Source: Kondoa subrosea
Taxonomy: Eukaryota
Reading direction: 5' to 3'
DNA: 64,000 bases
Assembly (NCBI GenBank): GCA_039545335.1
Contig: BCIN01000001.1
Span: 3,041,136-3,105,135, forward strand
The position numbers were made by a program, and so were the translations under genes. Under the pieces are notes generated by a model. It saw only the letters and a program-made list of their open reading frames with translations, did not search any database and was not told the origin of the DNA. This document shows, one piece after another, positions 36,832 through 49,008 of the stretch; position 1 is the stretch's first letter, and every line of letters begins with the position of its first letter.

Positions 36832-38411
36832 TTATGCATTTGCAAGACTGATAGACCTCAATTGCTCTTGAAGGTGCTCTGCAACCGTCATATTCGGATA
36901 TCGCTGTTTGATCTCTGCTTCTTCGCCTGGCTTAATGAATTGCTGCAAAGGGTTCAACCTAAACTCAGGTGATAAGTGCCACTGAATATTGCGTTAGTGC
37001 TTGCTTCGTAGACAGGGAGATGACATAACGCACGAAGAAAGTAGAACTGATCCTGATCTTTGGTCGATCAGGTCTTTCCACCTCTGCTTTCTTGATAGCC
37101 TCAATTGTTCTTGGATTGACTACAACTTCATGAAATCCGGCTAATATGCTTCCGCCGGTCAAATGTTCTAGCTGTTTGCCTGTTTGTACGAGCAAGTAGC
37201 CGGGAGGCATCTTGACTTCGATTCTTTTTCCGCTGTTTCTTGCCCAAATATGAAGACCCTGAAAAATAATGAGCACTAAAATTAAAAGTCAGCATCTACG
37301 CAAAATGAGCGAACCGGATATCTTGATCTTCCGTGAATTGTGAGACAATTCAGATCTGGTAAGAACAATCAGTCAAAATTTGAAGCTACAAGCAGCAGAT
37401 GCGCTGCGAACCAGAATGAAAGCCAGCCCTGAGGACCATCAAATTGTGAGTAAATCGAGTCAAGGACTTGTTTGGGAAGCTCACATGATCGAGTTGAGTT
37501 GACCGTACTTCTCTAGATTGGCTACAAGAATAACAAGATTGAGTATGATGGAGCGATCTTATCAGCCCGAACTTACTAGCAGTAGGTGCGAGAAGGTGGT
37601 TGCCATACTTTCCAGCATCACTTAAGAAGTTCTGCGAATCTCCGCGTTAGCTCATCTAGCAGACCAAAGTAATATAATCTTTCCCTACCTTTTCCAAACC
37701 CATTCCTTCTGCACACATTTGCGCTACACCAGTAACAGCAGTCAACATCTGATTACCCCATTTCTCCATCGTCTCTGTCCAGACATCTGTAAACTTTTCA
37801 GGAATGATATTAACCAAATCTTCGCTTGTGTCGGTAGGTGATTTCTTGCCCATCCGATGAAAGAAGCGCACTATACTCAACATGAAGATCAGCTCTGAAC
37901 ATGCATAAGAGTTGATAACTTACTCTTTGGATCTTTATGCTCTGAATACAAATCTAGAGGTCTTTCAGAGGGTTCCAAAGCGTCAATCAATTTCCGACAA
38001 TCTTGATTCACAGTGCAAACTGGTTTCTCAGTATGTTCTAAAGTAGCACCAACTTGAAAATGATGTTCTGGACGCTATACCCAAATTTCTCTACTTCAGC
38101 ATTGTGTTTTTTTGGAGTTCAGTACTAAAAGCAAACAACATACAGTATCTTTCTGTAAAACTTCATCCGATTGAGCGAAATAGTCTTCCATGAGATCCAA
38201 GAAAGCAGCATTGTCTTGTTCTGTTACGCGAGAATCTTTGACAACCAGAGCTCCATAAGTTCTTGGCGGGGAAAAAGATGAGCATGTAGCGTTATTTGTA
38301 AGCTGGTAAGGATGCTTACTTGAGCGCTTCGGCTGCTTTTACAGCTTCTGCATGCGCTTCTGAGCCATTGGCACGGAAGATGTCGAGAGAAACGATGGGA
38401 AGGGAATCCAT
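36832..38411 (-). CDS. 2-oxoglutarate/Fe(II)-dependent oxygenase family protein
   Basis: HxD motif in AGFHSDLNCLTIHGRSRYPGLHIW, distal His in AGFHEVVV, RISSTFF and N-terminal LPIVSLD. Confidence 0.85.
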
Positions 38412-38706
38412 GGTTTAATTTGCAGATTTGCGCGAGAGGGAGTGATACAGGACAGCAGGACACAGATAGACACTAAGATAATAGAGGTAGAGAGCAATAG
38501 TACACGTCCTGACTAGGCTGTTTGTTGACGACAAGTCTCGACCAATGAAATGCTTTCAAATGCGGATTGCATGCACTCTTGTCACGTTACAGTTGCTTCC
38601 CTTCCATCTTTCCATTTCTGTCCTGAAGCTCTCTCTCAACTCAGATTGAAGACAGCCTGCCCTTCTGCTCGCTTGTGTGTCCTGAGCATCACACCTGCTG
38701 CCCTTG

Positions 38707-39520
38707 ATGGTGTCCACTCGTTCTCAAACTAAACACAGCTCTTCCAAGTCTTGTTCTTTCTCTTCTTTACCTTCTCGTACTCTGAAACCTAAACACAAGC
38801 CAGTAACCCCAACTCAACCAACAAACTATCATGAGCATCTGCAGAAAACAAGGTTTCGATCAATCTTATCTTCCAAAGCTAGGGTAGCTGCTATAAGACA
38901 ACGTATCAAGCAAGAAGAAGAACCTATGCAATTGTGGTCAGACAAATTTGAGGATCTAAAAGTAAGGCGAGATAACACGAGGAGGTTAGTGCTTGCGATG
39001 ACACCACTTTGAAAGGGTGTATGCTGAAACAGACGCAATGAACAGTACATTCGACAAGTTTGTGATTAGGGTGCAGAAATTGCAAGCACAAGCAAACGGT
39101 ATGACTGGGAGACAAGTAAGTTTTCGTATATTTAGAATGTGAGAGACAGAAAGTCCTGACTGGTACACGGTGCAGAACATCACTAGAGGATTCGTCAAGC
39201 GTATGATGGATGAACTGGCTGCTGTGACAAAAGAGCAGCAAGATCTGGACAGCTCCTTAGCTTCTTTAGAAACGGATCTGACTTATTTGGAAACTGAAAG
39301 TGAGCTTTCAAGTACTTTGGTCGATATGAGCTGCAGCTAACTGCAACGTGTAGCCAACAAGAGAATGAAGCTCGTTAAGAAGATCAACAGCGAATTGGAT
39401 CTTCTTGAAAAGGGAAATCACGATGTTATTCTCGTGAGCGTCGACATTTCCTGATGTGCAACTATCGCTGATGAAATTGCTCGTCCTTCACAGGACCTAG
39501 TCATTCTTTCCAAGCAATAA
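38707..39520 (+). CDS. Hypothetical coiled-coil protein
   Basis: MVSTRSQ start. GT-AG introns (e.g. 38985-39045) join helical, charged exons that end at TAA 39518-39520. Confidence 0.55.
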
Positions 39521-39831
39521 TACGTGCTGCTCTTATCTATTTCACTGGTGAGTGGGTTTGAAGAGATCGACTCTCATTCGTCTAATGACCGCTTCTTTCC
39601 TCAGTACATATATCACACTGTCTCATTTGAACGGATGTAAAATAGTAATGTACCATCATAAGCGGATCACATAATGCATGCTTCACTTTTATCTTTACTT
39701 CCACACGCTTCATCATTTCGCTTGACAAACCACAACCAATACCTTTTGCTCGAAACATACTGTGACTTGCTTGGATTATACCAAACTTATTTGGATACAT
39801 CTATCTTTGAAGCAATAGAACAGCAGCAGCA

Positions 39832-42046
39832 ATGTGTACATTTCTCCTCACTCTGCATAATAATTTATTGCAATTTGGCTTATTGCATCGTGAGAACAGC
39901 TACAATAGTCGAGCGGATTAAAGCGATCGGTAGGCCTCATTATCTGAATGCATGTACTGTAAAAGCGGGAAGTCTGCGGCCTGTCCATGACGGTTTTCGA
40001 GAATTGGTGCAAATGTCGAATATCGAGAACTGGTCATGAATAGGCTGCAGACTGGCTTGCTGTATCTCATTGTATTCTGTTCGATAAATAGAGGATGAGA
40101 TGGTCAGTCAGACGGCTTAGCATTTGAGAATTCAGCTCATGCATAGGCTCTCGATATGACAGGCCAAGACTCAGAAAGTAAGTATTCCAACTATTACCAT
40201 AGCTCAATATTTGACAGTATGCGTAATGTACAGAGTTCGTCATACCTAATCAGACATTGCTCTGTGCTTAAATTGCAAATCATCAGACAAGGCTACAAGG
40301 TAGATCATCTATTTCGATAATACCTTCGGGGTTTGCTCGATATTGATGGTGCTACAGTTTCCATTTAGGTCAACTGAAAGCCAAACTAGCTAAACTCAAA
40401 AGAGAACTCATCACACCTTCATCTTCTTCTGGACCTGCTGGTGCAGGTTTCGATGTTGCTCGAACGGGTATCGCTTCTGTTGGATTTATAGGCTGTACGG
40501 TGGACACTCTAGATCGTTAAGTATTGAATGTCTCATCAAGCAACTTTTAGTTCCCTCGGTGGGGAAAAGTTCACTGATGAGTAAACTGACGGGGACGGAG
40601 TCAATTGCTGCTGCATGTGCGTCAAATGTTGGGATTCAGCTAGTCTTCTAGCTGACGCGGACTCTTGACACACAGATGAATTCACGACATTGACGACTGT
40701 CCCTGGTACTTTGGAAGTCAATGGCGCAAAAATTCAGAGTGAGCGAATCGAATTCGATGTGTACTGGAGAACAGCAGTTGATCAAGCCTCGATAGTCCTC
40801 GATTTGCCTGGTATTATTGAAGGTGCCAAAGATGGTAAAGGTCGAGGTCGCCAAGTCATTGCAGTCGCCCGATCAACGAACCTGATCTTTATCGTCCTGG
40901 ACGTGCTCAAACCGTTGAAAGATAAAACAGTCATCGAAACTGAATTAGAAGGTTTCGGTATTCGATTGAACAAAGAACCGCCAAATATCTTGATCAAGAA
41001 GAAGGATCGTGGTGGAATAGCAATCAGCAATACTGTTCCGCTTACGAAGCTAGAAACGGAGGAAATCAAAGCGGTGCTTGCTGAATACAAGTTGTCGAAT
41101 TGCGATATTTCTTTTAGATGTGACGCTACGCTGGATGAATTGATTGATGTGTGCGAGGGGAACCGTGTTTATGTACGATATTCTGCTTATACTCGGCTCT
41201 TCCGCTGACATCTATGACAGATCCCTGCGGGCATGTTTAAACCTCTTGAACGAGCTTTTGACTAAGGGAACTGACTCCTTTGTTTGCAGTGTATGTACTG
41301 AACAAGATTGATGCGATCTCGCACGAAGAACTAGATCTGCTCTATCGTGTGTCGAAAACCTCTTCATTCGCAAAACCCTTGTTTGCTCAACTTTCATGAA
41401 TTCTGACTACCACAGGTATTCCAGATTCGGTACCGATCAGTGTGAAGCTATGGCTAAGTATGCTCAAGCGTCACTTATATCAACTATGACTGATGTTCTG
41501 CTCCAGATATCGATGAATTGCTTGAAGTCATGTGGGAAAAATTAAATCTGGTTCGAGTATATACGAAACCAAGAGGAAAACTGCCGGACTATACTGCGCC
41601 AGTCGTACTGAAGAAGAACAAGGCATCGGTTGAAGTAAGTCAAACCTCGTTTTGTGTTTCAAGCCGCTGACACTTGAACAGGATTTCTGTAATGCAATTC
41701 ACAAGTACGTCACTACCCTTCTGCAGCGTATGGAAGGATGTTTGACGTTGAAACACAGGGATATTGTGAACCAATTCAAGGTAGCCATCGTCTGGGGGTC
41801 TTCGGCGAAGGTAGTGCTTCAATTTGCTTGCAAGGAATTGGATCTGAACATCCGTCACAGCACGCTCGTGGCCAGAAAGTGGGACTAGAGCATGTTTTAC
41901 AAGCAAGTTTTTGTTATAATACCTATTTGGCAATGCAGTCTAACATGTTCTGCTTTCATTGCAGGATGAGGATGTTATAACCAGTATGTTTCTGCTTCTT
42001 TCAGGCTCGAATCAGCTCACATGTTCTGGCAGTCACTAAAAAGTGA
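39832..42046 (+). CDS. RBG1: Developmentally regulated GTP-binding protein (DRG1/Rbg1, OBG family)
   Basis: [74 protein letters not shown] and a C-terminal TGS domain. Many microexons. Confidence 0.95.
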
Positions 42047-42359
42047 ACGTTGCTATTCCTGAGGAAGAATACAACGGATGCATTTGGACCAATTGTAATA
42101 CAGTGTATATGGGGATGCATACAGCATCTTCTTTCCCTCGTCCCTACACTCTTCCGGTGTGACCGGTCTGCCTGAGTTCGGCAAAAGTCATTTTCTCTAT
42201 AGCTATTCTTTGAGAGCCTTGTCTTCAGCTGCTCGTCGCTAGGTGTGCAGCGAGCTTCATCTGAGGATCCGCAAGCTGATTTGGGTGAAAGTCAAGACTT
42301 GTAAATTTTCACTTGTCCTTCTCTCATAACCACCCTACACCTAAAAACTACTCTTCATC

Positions 42360-45300
42360 ATGGTGAAGTGAGTGCATACGCTGCATGTGTCGGCACACAG
42401 CTAACAATATTCGCTCTACAGTTTCACAGTAGGCAAGTCGATATTATGCACAAGCTTGGGCCAGAATAGCAAGCTAATACAAACTTGTTTGATGATCAGA
42501 CCAGATGCGCGGCCTTATGGACCACGGTATGCGCTGCTATATGCAAGTCTCGCGGGCAGTAGACTGATCAAAGTGGCAATTGTCTACAGCATCTAAGTAA
42601 GTGTGCCTCTACGTGTATGAGATGCCTTATTGATGAGATGTACAGCATTCGTAACATTTCCGTTATCGCTCACGGTCAGCTCCAGCGTGCTGCAATCATG
42701 CGACCGAGATGTACTGAAATTTGCAAATTTCCATAGTCGATCACGGAAAGTCTACTCTCACCGATTCATTGGTGCAAAAGGCCGGTATCATCGCTTCATC
42801 CAAGGCCGGAGACATGCGATACACTGACACAAGAGATGATGAGAAGGAAAGAGGTATCACAATCAAGTCGACCGCTATCTCTATGTACTTCGAGATGGAA
42901 AAGGAAGACCTTGAAGCCATTGCACAGAGGACTGACGGTTCGTTGGAATTGCTACCGATGTCTCGGATCATCCTCAATGTCGTCTTCGAACAGGAAACGA
43001 GTTCTTGATCAACTTGATCGATTCACCTGGTCACGTCGATTTCTCATCTGAAGTCACTGCTGCTCTTCGTGTCACCGATGGTGCCCTTGTTGTCGTCGAT
43101 TGCGTTGAGTACGTTTGGGTCTTTCTTCCACCAGTATTGAGCTCATCGGCACTTCAGCGGTGTTTGCGTACAAACCGAAACCGTCTTGCGACAAGCTCTT
43201 ACCGAGCGAATTAAGCCTGTTGTCATCATCAACAAGGTCGACCGTGCTCTTCTCGAACTCCAAGTTACCAAAGAAGACCTTTACCAATCTTTCTGCCGAA
43301 CAATCGAATCCGTCAATGTCATTATCTCTACCTACAACGACAAAGCTCTCGGTGATCTTCAAGTCTACCCTGAAAAGGGAACAGTAGCTTTCGGATCCGG
43401 TCTTCACGGTTGGGCTTTCTCTCTCCGAAACTTCGCCACCCGTTACGCAAAGAAGTTCGGTATTGACAAGGCAAAGATGATGGACCGACTTTGGGGAGAT
43501 AACTTCTTCAACCCAAAGACCAAGAAGTGGACCAAGAAGAACACTGACGATGACGGAAAGCCATTAGACCGAGCCTTCAAGTCAGTTTCTTTCCGTCTTA
43601 TTCACGCGAGACCATTTGCTGAGATCCCGTTCAAGCATGTTCGTTCTTGACCCTATCTTCAAAATCTTTGAAGCATGCATGAACCACAAAACTGCATCGC
43701 TCATGGTATGTTTCTGACTTTCTTAAATATCAGTCCTTGTTTGCTAATTTTGTGCTTTACCAATCTACAGCCTATGTTGGAAAAGCTTGAGATCACTCTA
43801 AAATCTGACGAGAAGGATCTAGAAGGCAAGGCTTTGCTCAAGATCATCATGAAGAAGTTCTTGCCAGCTGGTGATTCTCTTCTTGAGATGATGTATGTCT
43901 GGCTTTCTGTCTTGTCGCTCATGCCTCTGACGCCGTGTGAAGCGTCATCAACCTTCCTTCTCCTGAAACTGCCCAGAAATACCGTGTAGAGACCCTTTAT
44001 GAAGGTCCTATGGATGATGAATCTGCTATTGCCATCCGTGATTGCGACCCTAAGGGTGTAAGTCCTTGTTTCTTTGATGTCCGATTACAAGCTCATCAGT
44101 TTGTCCTAGCCTCTCATGTTGTACGTCTCAAAGATGGTACCCACCTCCGATAAGGGACGTTTCTACGCTTTCGGTCGTGTTTTCTCTGGAACAGTCAAGG
44201 CCGGACCAAAGATCAGAATTCAAGGACCAAACTACCAGCCCGGAAGCAAGACCGACTCCAACATCAAATCAGTTCAGCGAACCGTTCTGATGATGGGTCG
44301 AACTGTCGAACCAATCGAAGATTGCCCAGCTGGTAACATTATCGGTTTAGTCGGTATCGATCAATTCTTGCTCAAGTCCGGAACCCTCACTACTGCTGAG
44401 AACGCTCACAACATGAAGGTTATGAAGTTCTCTGTCTCACCTGTCGTGCAAGTCGCTGTCGAAGTCCAGAACGCTAACGATCTACCAAAACTTGTCGAAG
44501 GTCTTAAGCGTCTGTCTAAGTCTGATCCGTGTGTAATGACATGGATCAACGAAACCGGTGAACACATTGTTGCGTACGTACTGCTTTGGTCTCTTCCCCT
44601 TCTTCTGCTCATCCAAGACTTGGTCACACAGCGGTGCCGGTGAATTGCATTTGGAAATCTGCTTGAAGGATCTTGAAGAAGACCATGCTGGTGTTCCTCT
44701 CAAGAAATCAGCTCCAGTTGTCGGTTACAGAGAAACCATTCAAGCCAAATCCTCCATGACTGCTCTTTCCAAGTCTCAGAACAAGCACAACAGAATCTGG
44801 ATGGAGTCTGAACCTTTAGTCGAAGAGCTTTCAAAGGACATTGAAAGCGGAAAGGTCAACCCCAGAGATGATGTGAAGATTCGTGGCAGATATTTGGCTG
44901 ATGAGTACGGTTGGGATATCACTGATGCAAGAAAGATTTGGTGCTTCGTAAGTATTCATCTCTTGTACTTATGCAAATGCTCCTGCTGATCAATTTGCGT
45001 TCGACAGGGTCCTGAAGGAACCGGTCCTAACTTGCTTGTCGACACCACCAAGGGTGTGCAATACCTCAACGAAATCAAAGATTCATGTGTGGCTGCTTTC
45101 CAATGGGCGACAAAAGAAGGTGTATGCTGCGAAGAGAACATGCGAGGAACAAGATTCAACGGTAAGTAGCGACCTCCTCTCACCTTGGTTCTTGCTCACG
45201 TGCCTCATCTATAGTTATGGATGTCACGCTACACACCGATGCTATCCACAGAGGTGGTGGACAAATTATCCCGTTTGTCATTTCATCGTAGCATTTTTTG

Positions 45301-46192: not shown

Positions 46193-49008
46193 TCATCTAG
46201 TATACAATGCTTTACTGGTATTCACTTTATGAATGGTAATTATGCACCTAAATTCAAACACTTTATTACCGCTTTGAATACGACGAGCCATCAGCTTCAG
46301 CACTACTAAATAAGAAGCGGAGCGCACTGACATGCTCAGCGTGTCAATCTGCGGACCACCCTGTCGCTGCCGAGATCTTCTTTACTTAGATTACTGCTTT
46401 TGCTATTTGATAAAGATTGGTGAGCTGATCGATCGTGGGCTTTCCGCGTAACTAAGAGACAGAATCAGCATTAATGATATGTGATATAACAGCTCAGCAT
46501 ACTTCGACATATGTCGACCGTTTCCCTCTATCGAGCCTATCATATCGCATGACCAGGTCCCAGGAGAGCACGCCCTGGCGCTCATCCTGCTCATCGTCTC
46601 GTAGTGTTACCATACTCAACGGAGAAGCAGAAGCTGTGTCTTTTAAGTGGGCTCGACGGATATTGACATGTTCCGCCAATACATAGAGATCGCCAGAGTA
46701 AGTCAGATATTGAGGCGGTACTTCGAGATCACTTTGCCTAAAAGTAAGATATTAGCGGTTGCTGTGCGTCCTTAGGGACTACTCACATGGCTTCCGCAAA
46801 AGCTTCATCTTCTATTTTAGCTGCATCGAACCCCTTGCAAGCAGATAGGGAGAAGGCCAGATCAGTAGCTCTATAGCGATGATATTAGCGACGACGCAAT
46901 CTCAATCATGGTGAAACCCACCTATCGGGCAGGAACAAGCCAAATTCTTCCGTCCTTTCTAACGTGAAATTCCAGGTCTTACTTTTCCTCGGATACTGAA
47001 TACCAACTAAGCTCTTGGAATGCTGATCATCCTGAAGTCTCTTCACACGACGGTAGACTAGCGATCGTGAGCTCTCGGTTTCCACACTGTAAGAGCTCAT
47101 CCGCTTTTGGAGTTCTTCAGCCAAGAGTACACCAAATTCATCCGCCTTGCTCAATGTCTCATCTTGGCTTTCCATAAAGTCCAAGAAGTTGGGAGGACAT
47201 CCAGGCAGGAATTGAGGTGATTGCGCGATCTGGGGTAATGCCTCATGTACAGCTGGACCGAAGTAAGTTGGATCCCATGTAGAAGTAGAAGCGGGAAAAA
47301 CAAGATGACCAAAGCTATGAAGTATACTAGATCAGCGAAAGACTATACATGCAGACAAGAGGACGCACGAAAGAGTCATACGGAAATCGCCAAACGGAAC
47401 CAACCGCCTGTAGGCAGCCCGCATGCGAGGAAACAATTGATTTGCCGACCTGATGGCAACAGCATTAGGCTCGTAGATCTCTAGTAAAACGTGTCACTCG
47501 CCCATCTGAAACAGCGAGCTCTTTACTGCCAGTTGATGCCGGGTTGAGGTCAGATAAGTTGTGCAAACTCGATACGGTGCTCAATCTGGACAGTAGAGAG
47601 CTTTCTCCAACAGGTGTAAGGATGGATAGAGAATCTTTCGGTATCAAAGGGAGAAAAGCGTAGCCTTCGAAAGGCGCTGCTGTACCAATTTTGCCGCAAA
47701 GCTGTCGGGCTCGAATTCGTGTATGCTATAGACAATTATAGTCAATCAGATGTGCTAACGAAATGATACAAACGTACTGCAACAGCTGCTCGATCGAGAT
47801 GAAACTTTGCTGAATTCTTGTCCTGCTTCTTCTTTGCGCTCCAAAGCATGAGGTTGGCAGAATCCTGCGACGGGGATCAGCCCAGCATCCGAGGTTAGAC
47901 AGCTGTCACTACTGACAGGAATTGGCTCAATATATGTTTTGCTTGCAAAAGCGATATTCCTGATAACGCTAGGATGGACAGTAACGTTATTCGGAAACTG
48001 ATATTCTTGAGATTGAATCGACTAAGCAGAAGTCAGTAACCTTTCCAAGATTATAGCTGGTCTAATGCACCTGTTTTGTCTTCTCTAACAAACTGGCTGC
48101 AGCTTTTACAGAAACATCTGACCCTTGAAGCTCTAATGTGTGTACAGCATCCACTTCTGAGCTTTCTGATGGATTGAGCTTATAGGAGAATTCCGCAGAG
48201 AGCTGGCTTTGTACTGCCGTAGGCTATTAGCTTAGACAATTTGCCAAGCATTAGAAGCTCACATAAAGGCAGGCAAATATAGACCTCGCGGGTTGAGAGT
48301 GAAATATCTATAGCTAGTTAGCGATATAAGCTAAAGGGTATAACTTGCCATACCTTGACGTATAGCAGCTACAGGACGTGTACTGAGCGCTTCTTTCTCC
48401 ATCCGTTCCTTCTCTTTCTCCTTCTCTGCCTGCCTTGTTTGCCAAGTCTTGATCATTTCTACGGGATCTTCCCAGTGCCAACCTTGTTTGTGCTTGACCA
48501 GTATTTCGGCCAGCGCTTCTTTGTCCATCTTTCTGTTTGCAGGCGATTCGAGCAAACGAGACAAAGAAAGGAGTTGCGCTTTACTGAAAGCAGTAGCTAC
48601 AATGTCCACACTCTTGGTAAAACGTTTCTGATACCATTGTAAACGCTGTTCTTGAGTGCTCTTCCTAGGTGGTACCAAGTCCTCGTACTCTTTTGGTCTC
48701 AAGGCTAACAAATCTTCAATAGTAGGAGTTGGTACTTTCGGCCTGGTCTTCTTCCTCCTAATAATCTTTGTTTCTGCAGCATCTTCGATCAAGTCACTAG
48801 CGGAAGGTGCACGACGCTTTCCAGATTTTGGTCGACTGGAAGCCAGCACAGCCGGATCGCTTGCATCAGGAAGGGATGATATGGCACTCGCATCTGCCTC
48901 TTGTGAGCGTGATGAGCTGGAAGAGTGACATCGTATAAATTTGCTTGTTGAAATGCAGGTGCGGAGCGAGAGCAATTCCAGCCAAGCTCGGCCAGTCACA
49001 AAGGCCAT
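46193..49008 (-). CDS. Hypothetical protein with putative mitochondrial targeting peptide (possibly Sls1-like)
   Basis: Arg/Ser-rich N-terminus with few acidic residues; 225-aa first ORF followed by many GT-AG-bounded exons. 3' end approximate and family assignment weak. Confidence 0.5.

Follow-up and report, generated by a model that had tools for sequence, protein, structure and literature searches.

A 98-nt self-complementary module lies within intron 2 of the gene for DRG1/RBG1, a ribosome-interacting GTPase, in Kondoa subrosea, and is predicted to fold into a hairpin that is exceptional in the 64,000-nt stretch of DNA analyzed here (the window). We interpret intron 2 as a structured intron of the zipper-stem sort, in which the hairpin seems well placed to neutralize the extra length of the intron; both this function and the origin of the module are read from sequence and predicted folding. 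The features concerned are given below, where L001 denotes a spliced environmental cDNA from a related species.

39900-39929, + strand: exon 2, 30 nt, 90% identical to positions 93-122 of L001
39930-40091, + strand: intron 2 of DRG1/RBG1, 162 nt, GT-AG, phase 1 in codon 12, placed by the L001 spliced alignment and blastn
39964-40061, + strand: self-complementary module of 98 nt whose hairpin has a core and a 6-bp extension, from fold energy and pair list
39971-40000, + strand: 5′ arm of the core stem, from fold and pair list
40001-40022, + strand: apical region, 22 nt, partly self-paired in the MFE structure, from pair list
40023-40053, + strand: 3′ arm of the core stem, with a bulge at 40032, from fold and pair list
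40067-40071, + strand: putative branch-point motif CTCAT, 21 nt before the 3′ splice site, its branch A being 40070
40092-40102, + strand: exon 3, a microexon of 11 nt, from the spliced alignment, L001 being continuous across the exon

The DRG1/RBG1 gene is encoded at 39832-41935 on the + strand of the window. A protein search with its 126-codon exon returned thousands of DRG1 matches, the best named ones being from rust fungi (Melampsora, 87%; Phakopsora, 86%; Austropuccinia and Puccinia, 85% each), and the other matches from Pucciniomycotina stood at 79-84%. The gene was modeled by spliced alignment of the L001 protein, using our own spliced aligner and one correction by hand; L001 is 98% identical in the large exon and ~85% identical at the DNA level. 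The model contains 15 introns of 64, 162, 60, 105, 58, 56, 59, 57, 48, 59, 69, 49, 47, 54 and 50 nt, and the junctions on both sides of intron 2 match the spliced cDNA. The median length of 41 high-confidence introns elsewhere in the window (the background introns) is 54 nt, with a range of 48-91 nt, and the 14 DRG1 introns other than intron 2 measure 47-105 nt. The sequence-only reading from which this analysis started had set the 162 nt of intron 2 against a typical length of ~55 nt, and this contrast was borne out. The same holds for the microexon run which it had placed in DRG1: the L001-based model has exons of 11, 19 and 13 nt, and an additional 10-nt exon at 41221-41230.

Two other parts of the gene have unusual splice sites. 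Intron 4 (40163-40299) has tandem donors, and the consensus one, GTAAGT at 40178, is out of frame with the CAG acceptor at 40286. The only in-frame pairings are the weaker GTATTC at 40182 with CAG at 40286, which adds one valine relative to the related cDNA, and GTAAGT at 40178 with AAG at 40291, which leaves two residues fewer. Within 41173-41289, the 10-nt microexon is followed by a GC-AG intron (41231-41289), an arrangement without which the model does not yield the related cDNA's protein. Long introns were also sought by joining open reading frames across the window. The candidates of 100-260 nt were mostly composites, and none longer than 105 nt was verified besides intron 2. A 197-nt candidate in an RNA polymerase gene was rejected, as it would skip ~33 residues of a Pfam domain, and none of six other pairs of open reading frames had informative Pfam matches on both sides. 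The candidates did not coincide with any of the top 20 hairpins of the window.

An environmental metagenome scan yielded 80 DRG1 loci. The closest three (L001-L003; amino-acid identities of 98, 81 and 77%) are intronless, being spliced cDNAs. Intron positions were surveyed in 14 of the 80 loci, namely L069 and 13 loci that extend over 1000 bases upstream of the match. Seven of the 14 had no intron in the first 112 codons, one (L056) was poorly aligned, and the six that bear introns have none at codon 12. In L071, an intron is located at the same position as DRG1 intron 3.

The core of the hairpin pairs 39971-40000 with 40023-40053 through 29 bp, four of which are G:U. The stem is interrupted by a C.A mismatch at 39985/40039 and a bulge at 40032, and the loop has 22 nt; the stem of ~30 bp and the loop of 22 nt proposed by the sequence-only reading were thus recovered at the same positions. 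Outside the core, 39964-39969 pairs with 40056-40061 through 6 bp, two of which are G:U. A weaker outward extension had been proposed as well; it holds as far as 39964/40061, but farther out the pairing is no better than chance (z -0.34, 177/500 shuffles as good). Folding against shuffled controls, the check suggested with the original proposal, upheld the structure. On the + strand the whole intron folds at -61.9 kcal/mol (z -5.93), with none of 200 shuffles as good, and on the - strand at -40.6 kcal/mol (z -4.06), with 1 of 200 shuffles as good. This gap between the strands is due to the four core and two extension G:U pairs, set against a single C.A. Folded alone, the 98-nt module reaches -53.6 kcal/mol (z -8.75, 0/500 shuffles as good), and the 64 nt that are left after its removal reach -8.8 kcal/mol with the chance-level z of -0.34 given above. 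Therefore, the signal comes from a discrete module, and symmetry of the intron as a whole was rejected. Intron 2 minus the module is an ordinary unstructured intron of 64 nt, within the background range of 48-91 nt.

Among 12,782 100-nt segments taken from both strands of the 64 kb, the segment with the hairpin ranks first in stability (-52.2 vs -44.8 kcal/mol for the runner-up). The core pairs have probabilities of 0.97-1.0, and folding of the entire 5′ region (39832-40420) retains the hairpin. Two potential false splice sites, a GT at 39972 and an AG at 40050, are covered by the stem. The second most stable 100-nt fold, at 2451-2550, reaches -44.8 and -41.1 kcal/mol on the two strands, as expected of a near-perfect GC-rich inverted repeat. 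Another long hairpin, unrelated in sequence, is found at 47515-47603 (-55.5 kcal/mol on the + strand vs -39.8 kcal/mol on the - strand). On the - strand, its location is an open frame of 86 codons with likely exons of that strand on either side, and five neighboring frames gave no Pfam match.

The position of the module was compared with the splicing signals of the intron. CTCAT is the sole YTNAY match in the last 45 nt of intron 2, and the 41 background introns carry a motif of this class 11-33 nt before the 3′ end. The module begins 34 nt past the 5′ splice site and stops 6 nt before the putative branch motif. The linear distance from the 5′ splice site to the putative branch point is 135 nt, while the same linear distance in the background introns has a median of 33 nt and a range of 27-64 nt (n=41). 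When the path was allowed to cross pairs with a probability of at least 0.99, it shrank to 41 nt; shuffled inserts gave a median of 135 nt, and 18 of 300 were as short. With pairs of at least 0.9, the path was 39 nt, the median for shuffled inserts was 94 nt, and 65 of 300 were as short. The plain MFE graph distance did not discriminate between them (28 for the hairpin, a mean of 22.8 for the shuffles, 401/500 as short). In these predictions, the hairpin is a reliable rather than a unique way of shortening the path, and a far smaller stem would suffice. The suggestion that it brings the intron to a near-normal effective length therefore stands in part: 162-98 leaves 64 nt, and the 41-nt path falls within the range of 27-64 nt, but the MFE measure is equaled by those 401 shuffles.

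The stem ends close to the putative branch A (40070), at 9 nt counted from the extension or 17 nt from the core, and this nearness might impede the binding of U2 snRNP. The stretch around the branch point (40064-40071) is also complementary to microexon 3 (40094-40101) and is paired in the fold of the whole 5′ region, which could be chance.

These distances can be set beside those of zipper stems, described for long introns of Saccharomyces cerevisiae such as RPS17B and RPL7A. In the excerpted definition (PMC12350175), the total linker is 42-85 nt and at least 20 nt separate the stem from the branch point, as modeled on the budding-yeast spliceosome. Measured by this excerpt, the stem of intron 2 (39964-40061) is positioned as in a zipper stem, lying after the 5′ splice site (39930) and before the putative branch motif (40067-40071); the 5′ linker, 34 nt to the extension or 41 nt to the core, is in keeping with the definition, and so is the total linker of 34+9 = 43 or 41+17 = 58 nt. 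In contrast, the 9-17 nt to the putative branch A fall short of 20 nt, a limit that comes from budding yeast. Because of this one positional departure, we call the hairpin zipper-stem-like in its presumed action and do not class it as a zipper stem. The yeast introns of that account are 400-500 nt long, whereas intron 2 belongs to a basidiomycete with 50-nt introns, and its stem of 29-35 bp makes up almost the whole of the excess length.

We found no further copies of the module in the 64-kb window. Two whole DNA runs, probably the source of the assembly, were compared as contigs (6,171 contigs, 18.8 Mb, and 9,166 contigs, 18.9 Mb), and in each of them exactly one contig matched 39700-40400 at 80% likeness or more, a threshold at which the sensitivity for a 98-nt relative near 80% identity is uncertain. 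The many dispersed genomic copies that would have marked a MITE remnant were therefore not seen in either comparison, and the module is single-copy as far as the window and the two runs could show. Intron 2 had no similarity to the 55 other introns of the window, and no sequence families emerged among the 56 introns compared. No direct repeats adjoin 39964/40061 or 39971/40053, so that there is no target-site duplication at either border. In a search of 38000-43000 with Rfam covariance models, the hairpin had no match, and two matches at E 8-9 lay elsewhere.

Other systems share some of these properties. Introner-like elements, in the excerpted account (PMC3609843), are likewise longer than regular introns and have stable predicted secondary structures; unlike the module, which is one copy embedded in an ordinary intron, they are entire introns present in hundreds of near-identical copies. 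The internally symmetrical (stw)introns of Hypoxylaceae, as far as they are described in the excerpt of PMC8469720, are also fungal spliceosomal introns with long inverted repeats and possibly double-stranded intron RNA, and they too are without flanking target-site duplications. However, their repeats are 45-55 nt long, terminal and grouped in sequence families, whereas the symmetry of intron 2 is internal and without sister copies, its ends showing no structure beyond chance once the module is removed (z -0.34). Since there are no further copies in the window or the two runs at 80% likeness or more, no flanking repeat and no symmetric ends, the hallmarks of a MITE family, of introner-like elements and of the Hypoxylaceae terminal symmetry are absent. 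The module would most likely have arisen by insertion or local inverted duplication. As the stem of 29-35 bp far exceeds the needs of splicing, its length appears to be inherited from that origin rather than purpose-built.

The two arms differ at seven positions. All seven differences are transitions, and six of them are G:U pairs on the sense strand, in line with the initial remark that most deviations from a perfect repeat are of this kind. If a perfect palindrome decayed neutrally, the probability that at least six of seven differences keep the sense pair is 0.001-0.05 (binomial), and for four of the five in the core alone it is 0.013-0.16, ranges that depend on the transition share and strand bias assumed. 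At four-fold sites between the window and L001, which are near saturation, 26 of 55 differences are transitions and 29 are transversions. The G:U count is open to ascertainment bias, as the stem borders were drawn by sense-strand pairing. In addition, the sense strands of the 41 background introns are T-rich (T 32.3%, A 23.4%), which also favors G:U and may be an alternative source of the excess. The argument from G:U pairs to selection on the RNA thus keeps its nominal p of 0.001-0.05 but is weakened by the ascertainment and by the T-rich introns.

Structure is not confined to intron 2. Each of the seven DRG1 introns next to a microexon is more stably folded than its shuffles, a result from this one gene that was repeated with 1000 shuffles (z -1.66, -5.38, -2.88, -2.19, -4.52, -1.19 and -1.45). 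For the 41 background introns, z averages -0.03 (sd 1.15) and falls below -2.8 in 1 of 41; the two sets differ with a Mann-Whitney p of 1e-4. DRG1 introns 1-5 also differ from the background (p 3.5e-4), and without intron 2 the p is 1.3e-3. The stretches with structured introns are 39836-40357, 40617-40675 and 41173-41289, and intron 7 too folds better than its shuffles. Introns 3, 5 and 7 pair their 5′ splice site with the bases immediately before the 3′ AG. The motif TCGATA occurs at 40081, 40151, 40314, 40337 and 40789, so that 5 of its 21 + strand copies in the 64 kb fall in DRG1 introns; it is present in the last 30 nt of 4 of 15 DRG1 introns, and none of the 41 background introns has it there (post hoc Fisher p 0.004).

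Our preferred explanation, which we hold tentatively and rate at somewhat less than an even chance, is that a palindromic insertion or inverted duplication has been tolerated, and partly maintained, by folding away like a zipper stem. Upon transcription, the module would snap into a hairpin of 29-35 bp, and the confident pairs would leave ~40 nt separating the 5′ splice site from the putative branch point. By shortening the path, the hairpin could keep the oversized intron recognizable by intron definition beside an 11-nt exon, and it probably lets this intron splice as a normal short one. Selection on the sense-strand RNA would seem to keep the pairing, because the differences between the arms are mostly G:U wobbles. 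What counts against this explanation is that a stem of 6-10 bp would do, and 29-35 bp are unexplained by function alone. The nearness of the stem to the putative branch A, the shuffled inserts that shorten the path as much, the possible bias of the G:U count and the absence of a target-site duplication also weigh against it.

A fairly young palindromic insertion or replication-slippage product that decays neutrally, with no effect on splicing and no selection on the pairing, is a possible alternative to which we give a minor though appreciable chance. The module is single-copy with no known relatives, its stem is far longer than splicing needs, and shuffled inserts shorten the predicted path too, all of which neutral decay would explain; the G:U excess is only nominally significant and biased by the delimitation of the stem, and T-rich sense strands of introns favor the C-to-T changes that give G:U pairs. 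On the other hand, the 98 extra nucleotides triple the length of an intron where 41 of 41 background introns measure 48-91 nt, from which intron length seems to be constrained. Moreover, six of the seven arm differences keep the sense pairing, and none of the seven is a transversion, against 29 of 55 at four-fold sites relative to L001. A dispersed origin, as a member of a MITE, foldback or introner family, would agree with the inverted-repeat architecture of the module and with the normal size of the intron after its removal, and introner-like elements are reported in the excerpted account to exceed regular introns in length and to have stable predicted structures (PMC3609843). We consider such an origin very improbable, given zero additional copies in the 64-kb window, a single contig per run at 80% likeness or more in ~19 Mb of contigs, no similar introns among the 56 compared and no flanking direct repeat.

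The module could also be a substrate of Dicer or RNase III, either as an intronic hairpin-RNA or microRNA-like locus freed on splicing or as a cleavage site that lowers DRG1 pre-mRNA. The duplex is near-perfect (29 bp plus the extension, with few mismatches) and exceeds the 21 bp with few mismatches of a microRNA-like locus, and sense-strand wobble pairs are typical of transcribed hairpins. With mirtrons and fungal microRNA-like hairpin loci, as excerpted from PMC9757828, it shares an intronic hairpin whose duplex is long enough for Dicer. Frequent intronic milRNA or miRNA loci are reported for Cryptococcus neoformans alone (PMC9757828), which is counted in favor of this role; by the same excerpt, however, fungal loci wholly inside introns are very rare. 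The hairpin is not a mirtron proper, whose ends are set by the splice sites, since tails of 34 nt and 30 nt separate its ends from them. With no Rfam match, and with no evident target for silencing RNAs that a housekeeping-gene intron would yield, we regard this role as decidedly unlikely. We give only a slim chance to the idea that the hairpin acts on the microexon run as a regulatory or kinetic element, by slowing or ordering the removal of intron 2 relative to intron 3 or by alternating with a fold in which the branch point is masked. The slowed or ordered removal would prevent the skipping of the 11-nt exon 3. The structured state of the seven microexon-flanking introns (Mann-Whitney p 1e-4 against the background, where z averages -0.03), the pairing of 40064-40071 with microexon 3 in the 5′-region fold and the concentration of TCGATA in DRG1 introns would suit such an element; against it, intron 2 is not structured beyond chance outside the module, the pairing of 7-8 bp with exon 3 may be accidental, and the sample is one gene only. 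It is similarly unlikely, if a shade less so than either of these roles, that DRG1 has a system of its own in which RNA structure guides splicing of the microexon run, with the hairpin as its most extreme element. In such a gene-specific system, every intron beside an exon of 10-30 nt would fold its own ends or signals together, perhaps with TCGATA, and would thereby fix which of the closely packed splice sites pair and in which order. We know of no animal microexon factors in the fungus. A limited literature search, confined to titles, found nothing on fungal microexons with intron structure or on Cryptococcus hairpins and intron length.

The hairpin of DRG1 intron 2 is a single example, and each reading of it would carry its own meaning. 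If it yields small RNAs, it would be one of few fungal intronic hairpin loci, and if a gene-specific system guides the microexon run, it would represent a structural route to the inclusion of microexons in a fungus. If our preferred explanation of a tolerated, partly maintained insertion is true, intron 2, with 162 nt beside an 11-nt exon, is a compact natural test case for the interplay of intron definition with RNA structure. The zipper-stem principle of budding yeast would then apply to an intron-rich basidiomycete as well, and the case would mean that a genome tightly constrained to introns of 50 nt absorbs an insertion by keeping only those inserts that fold away.
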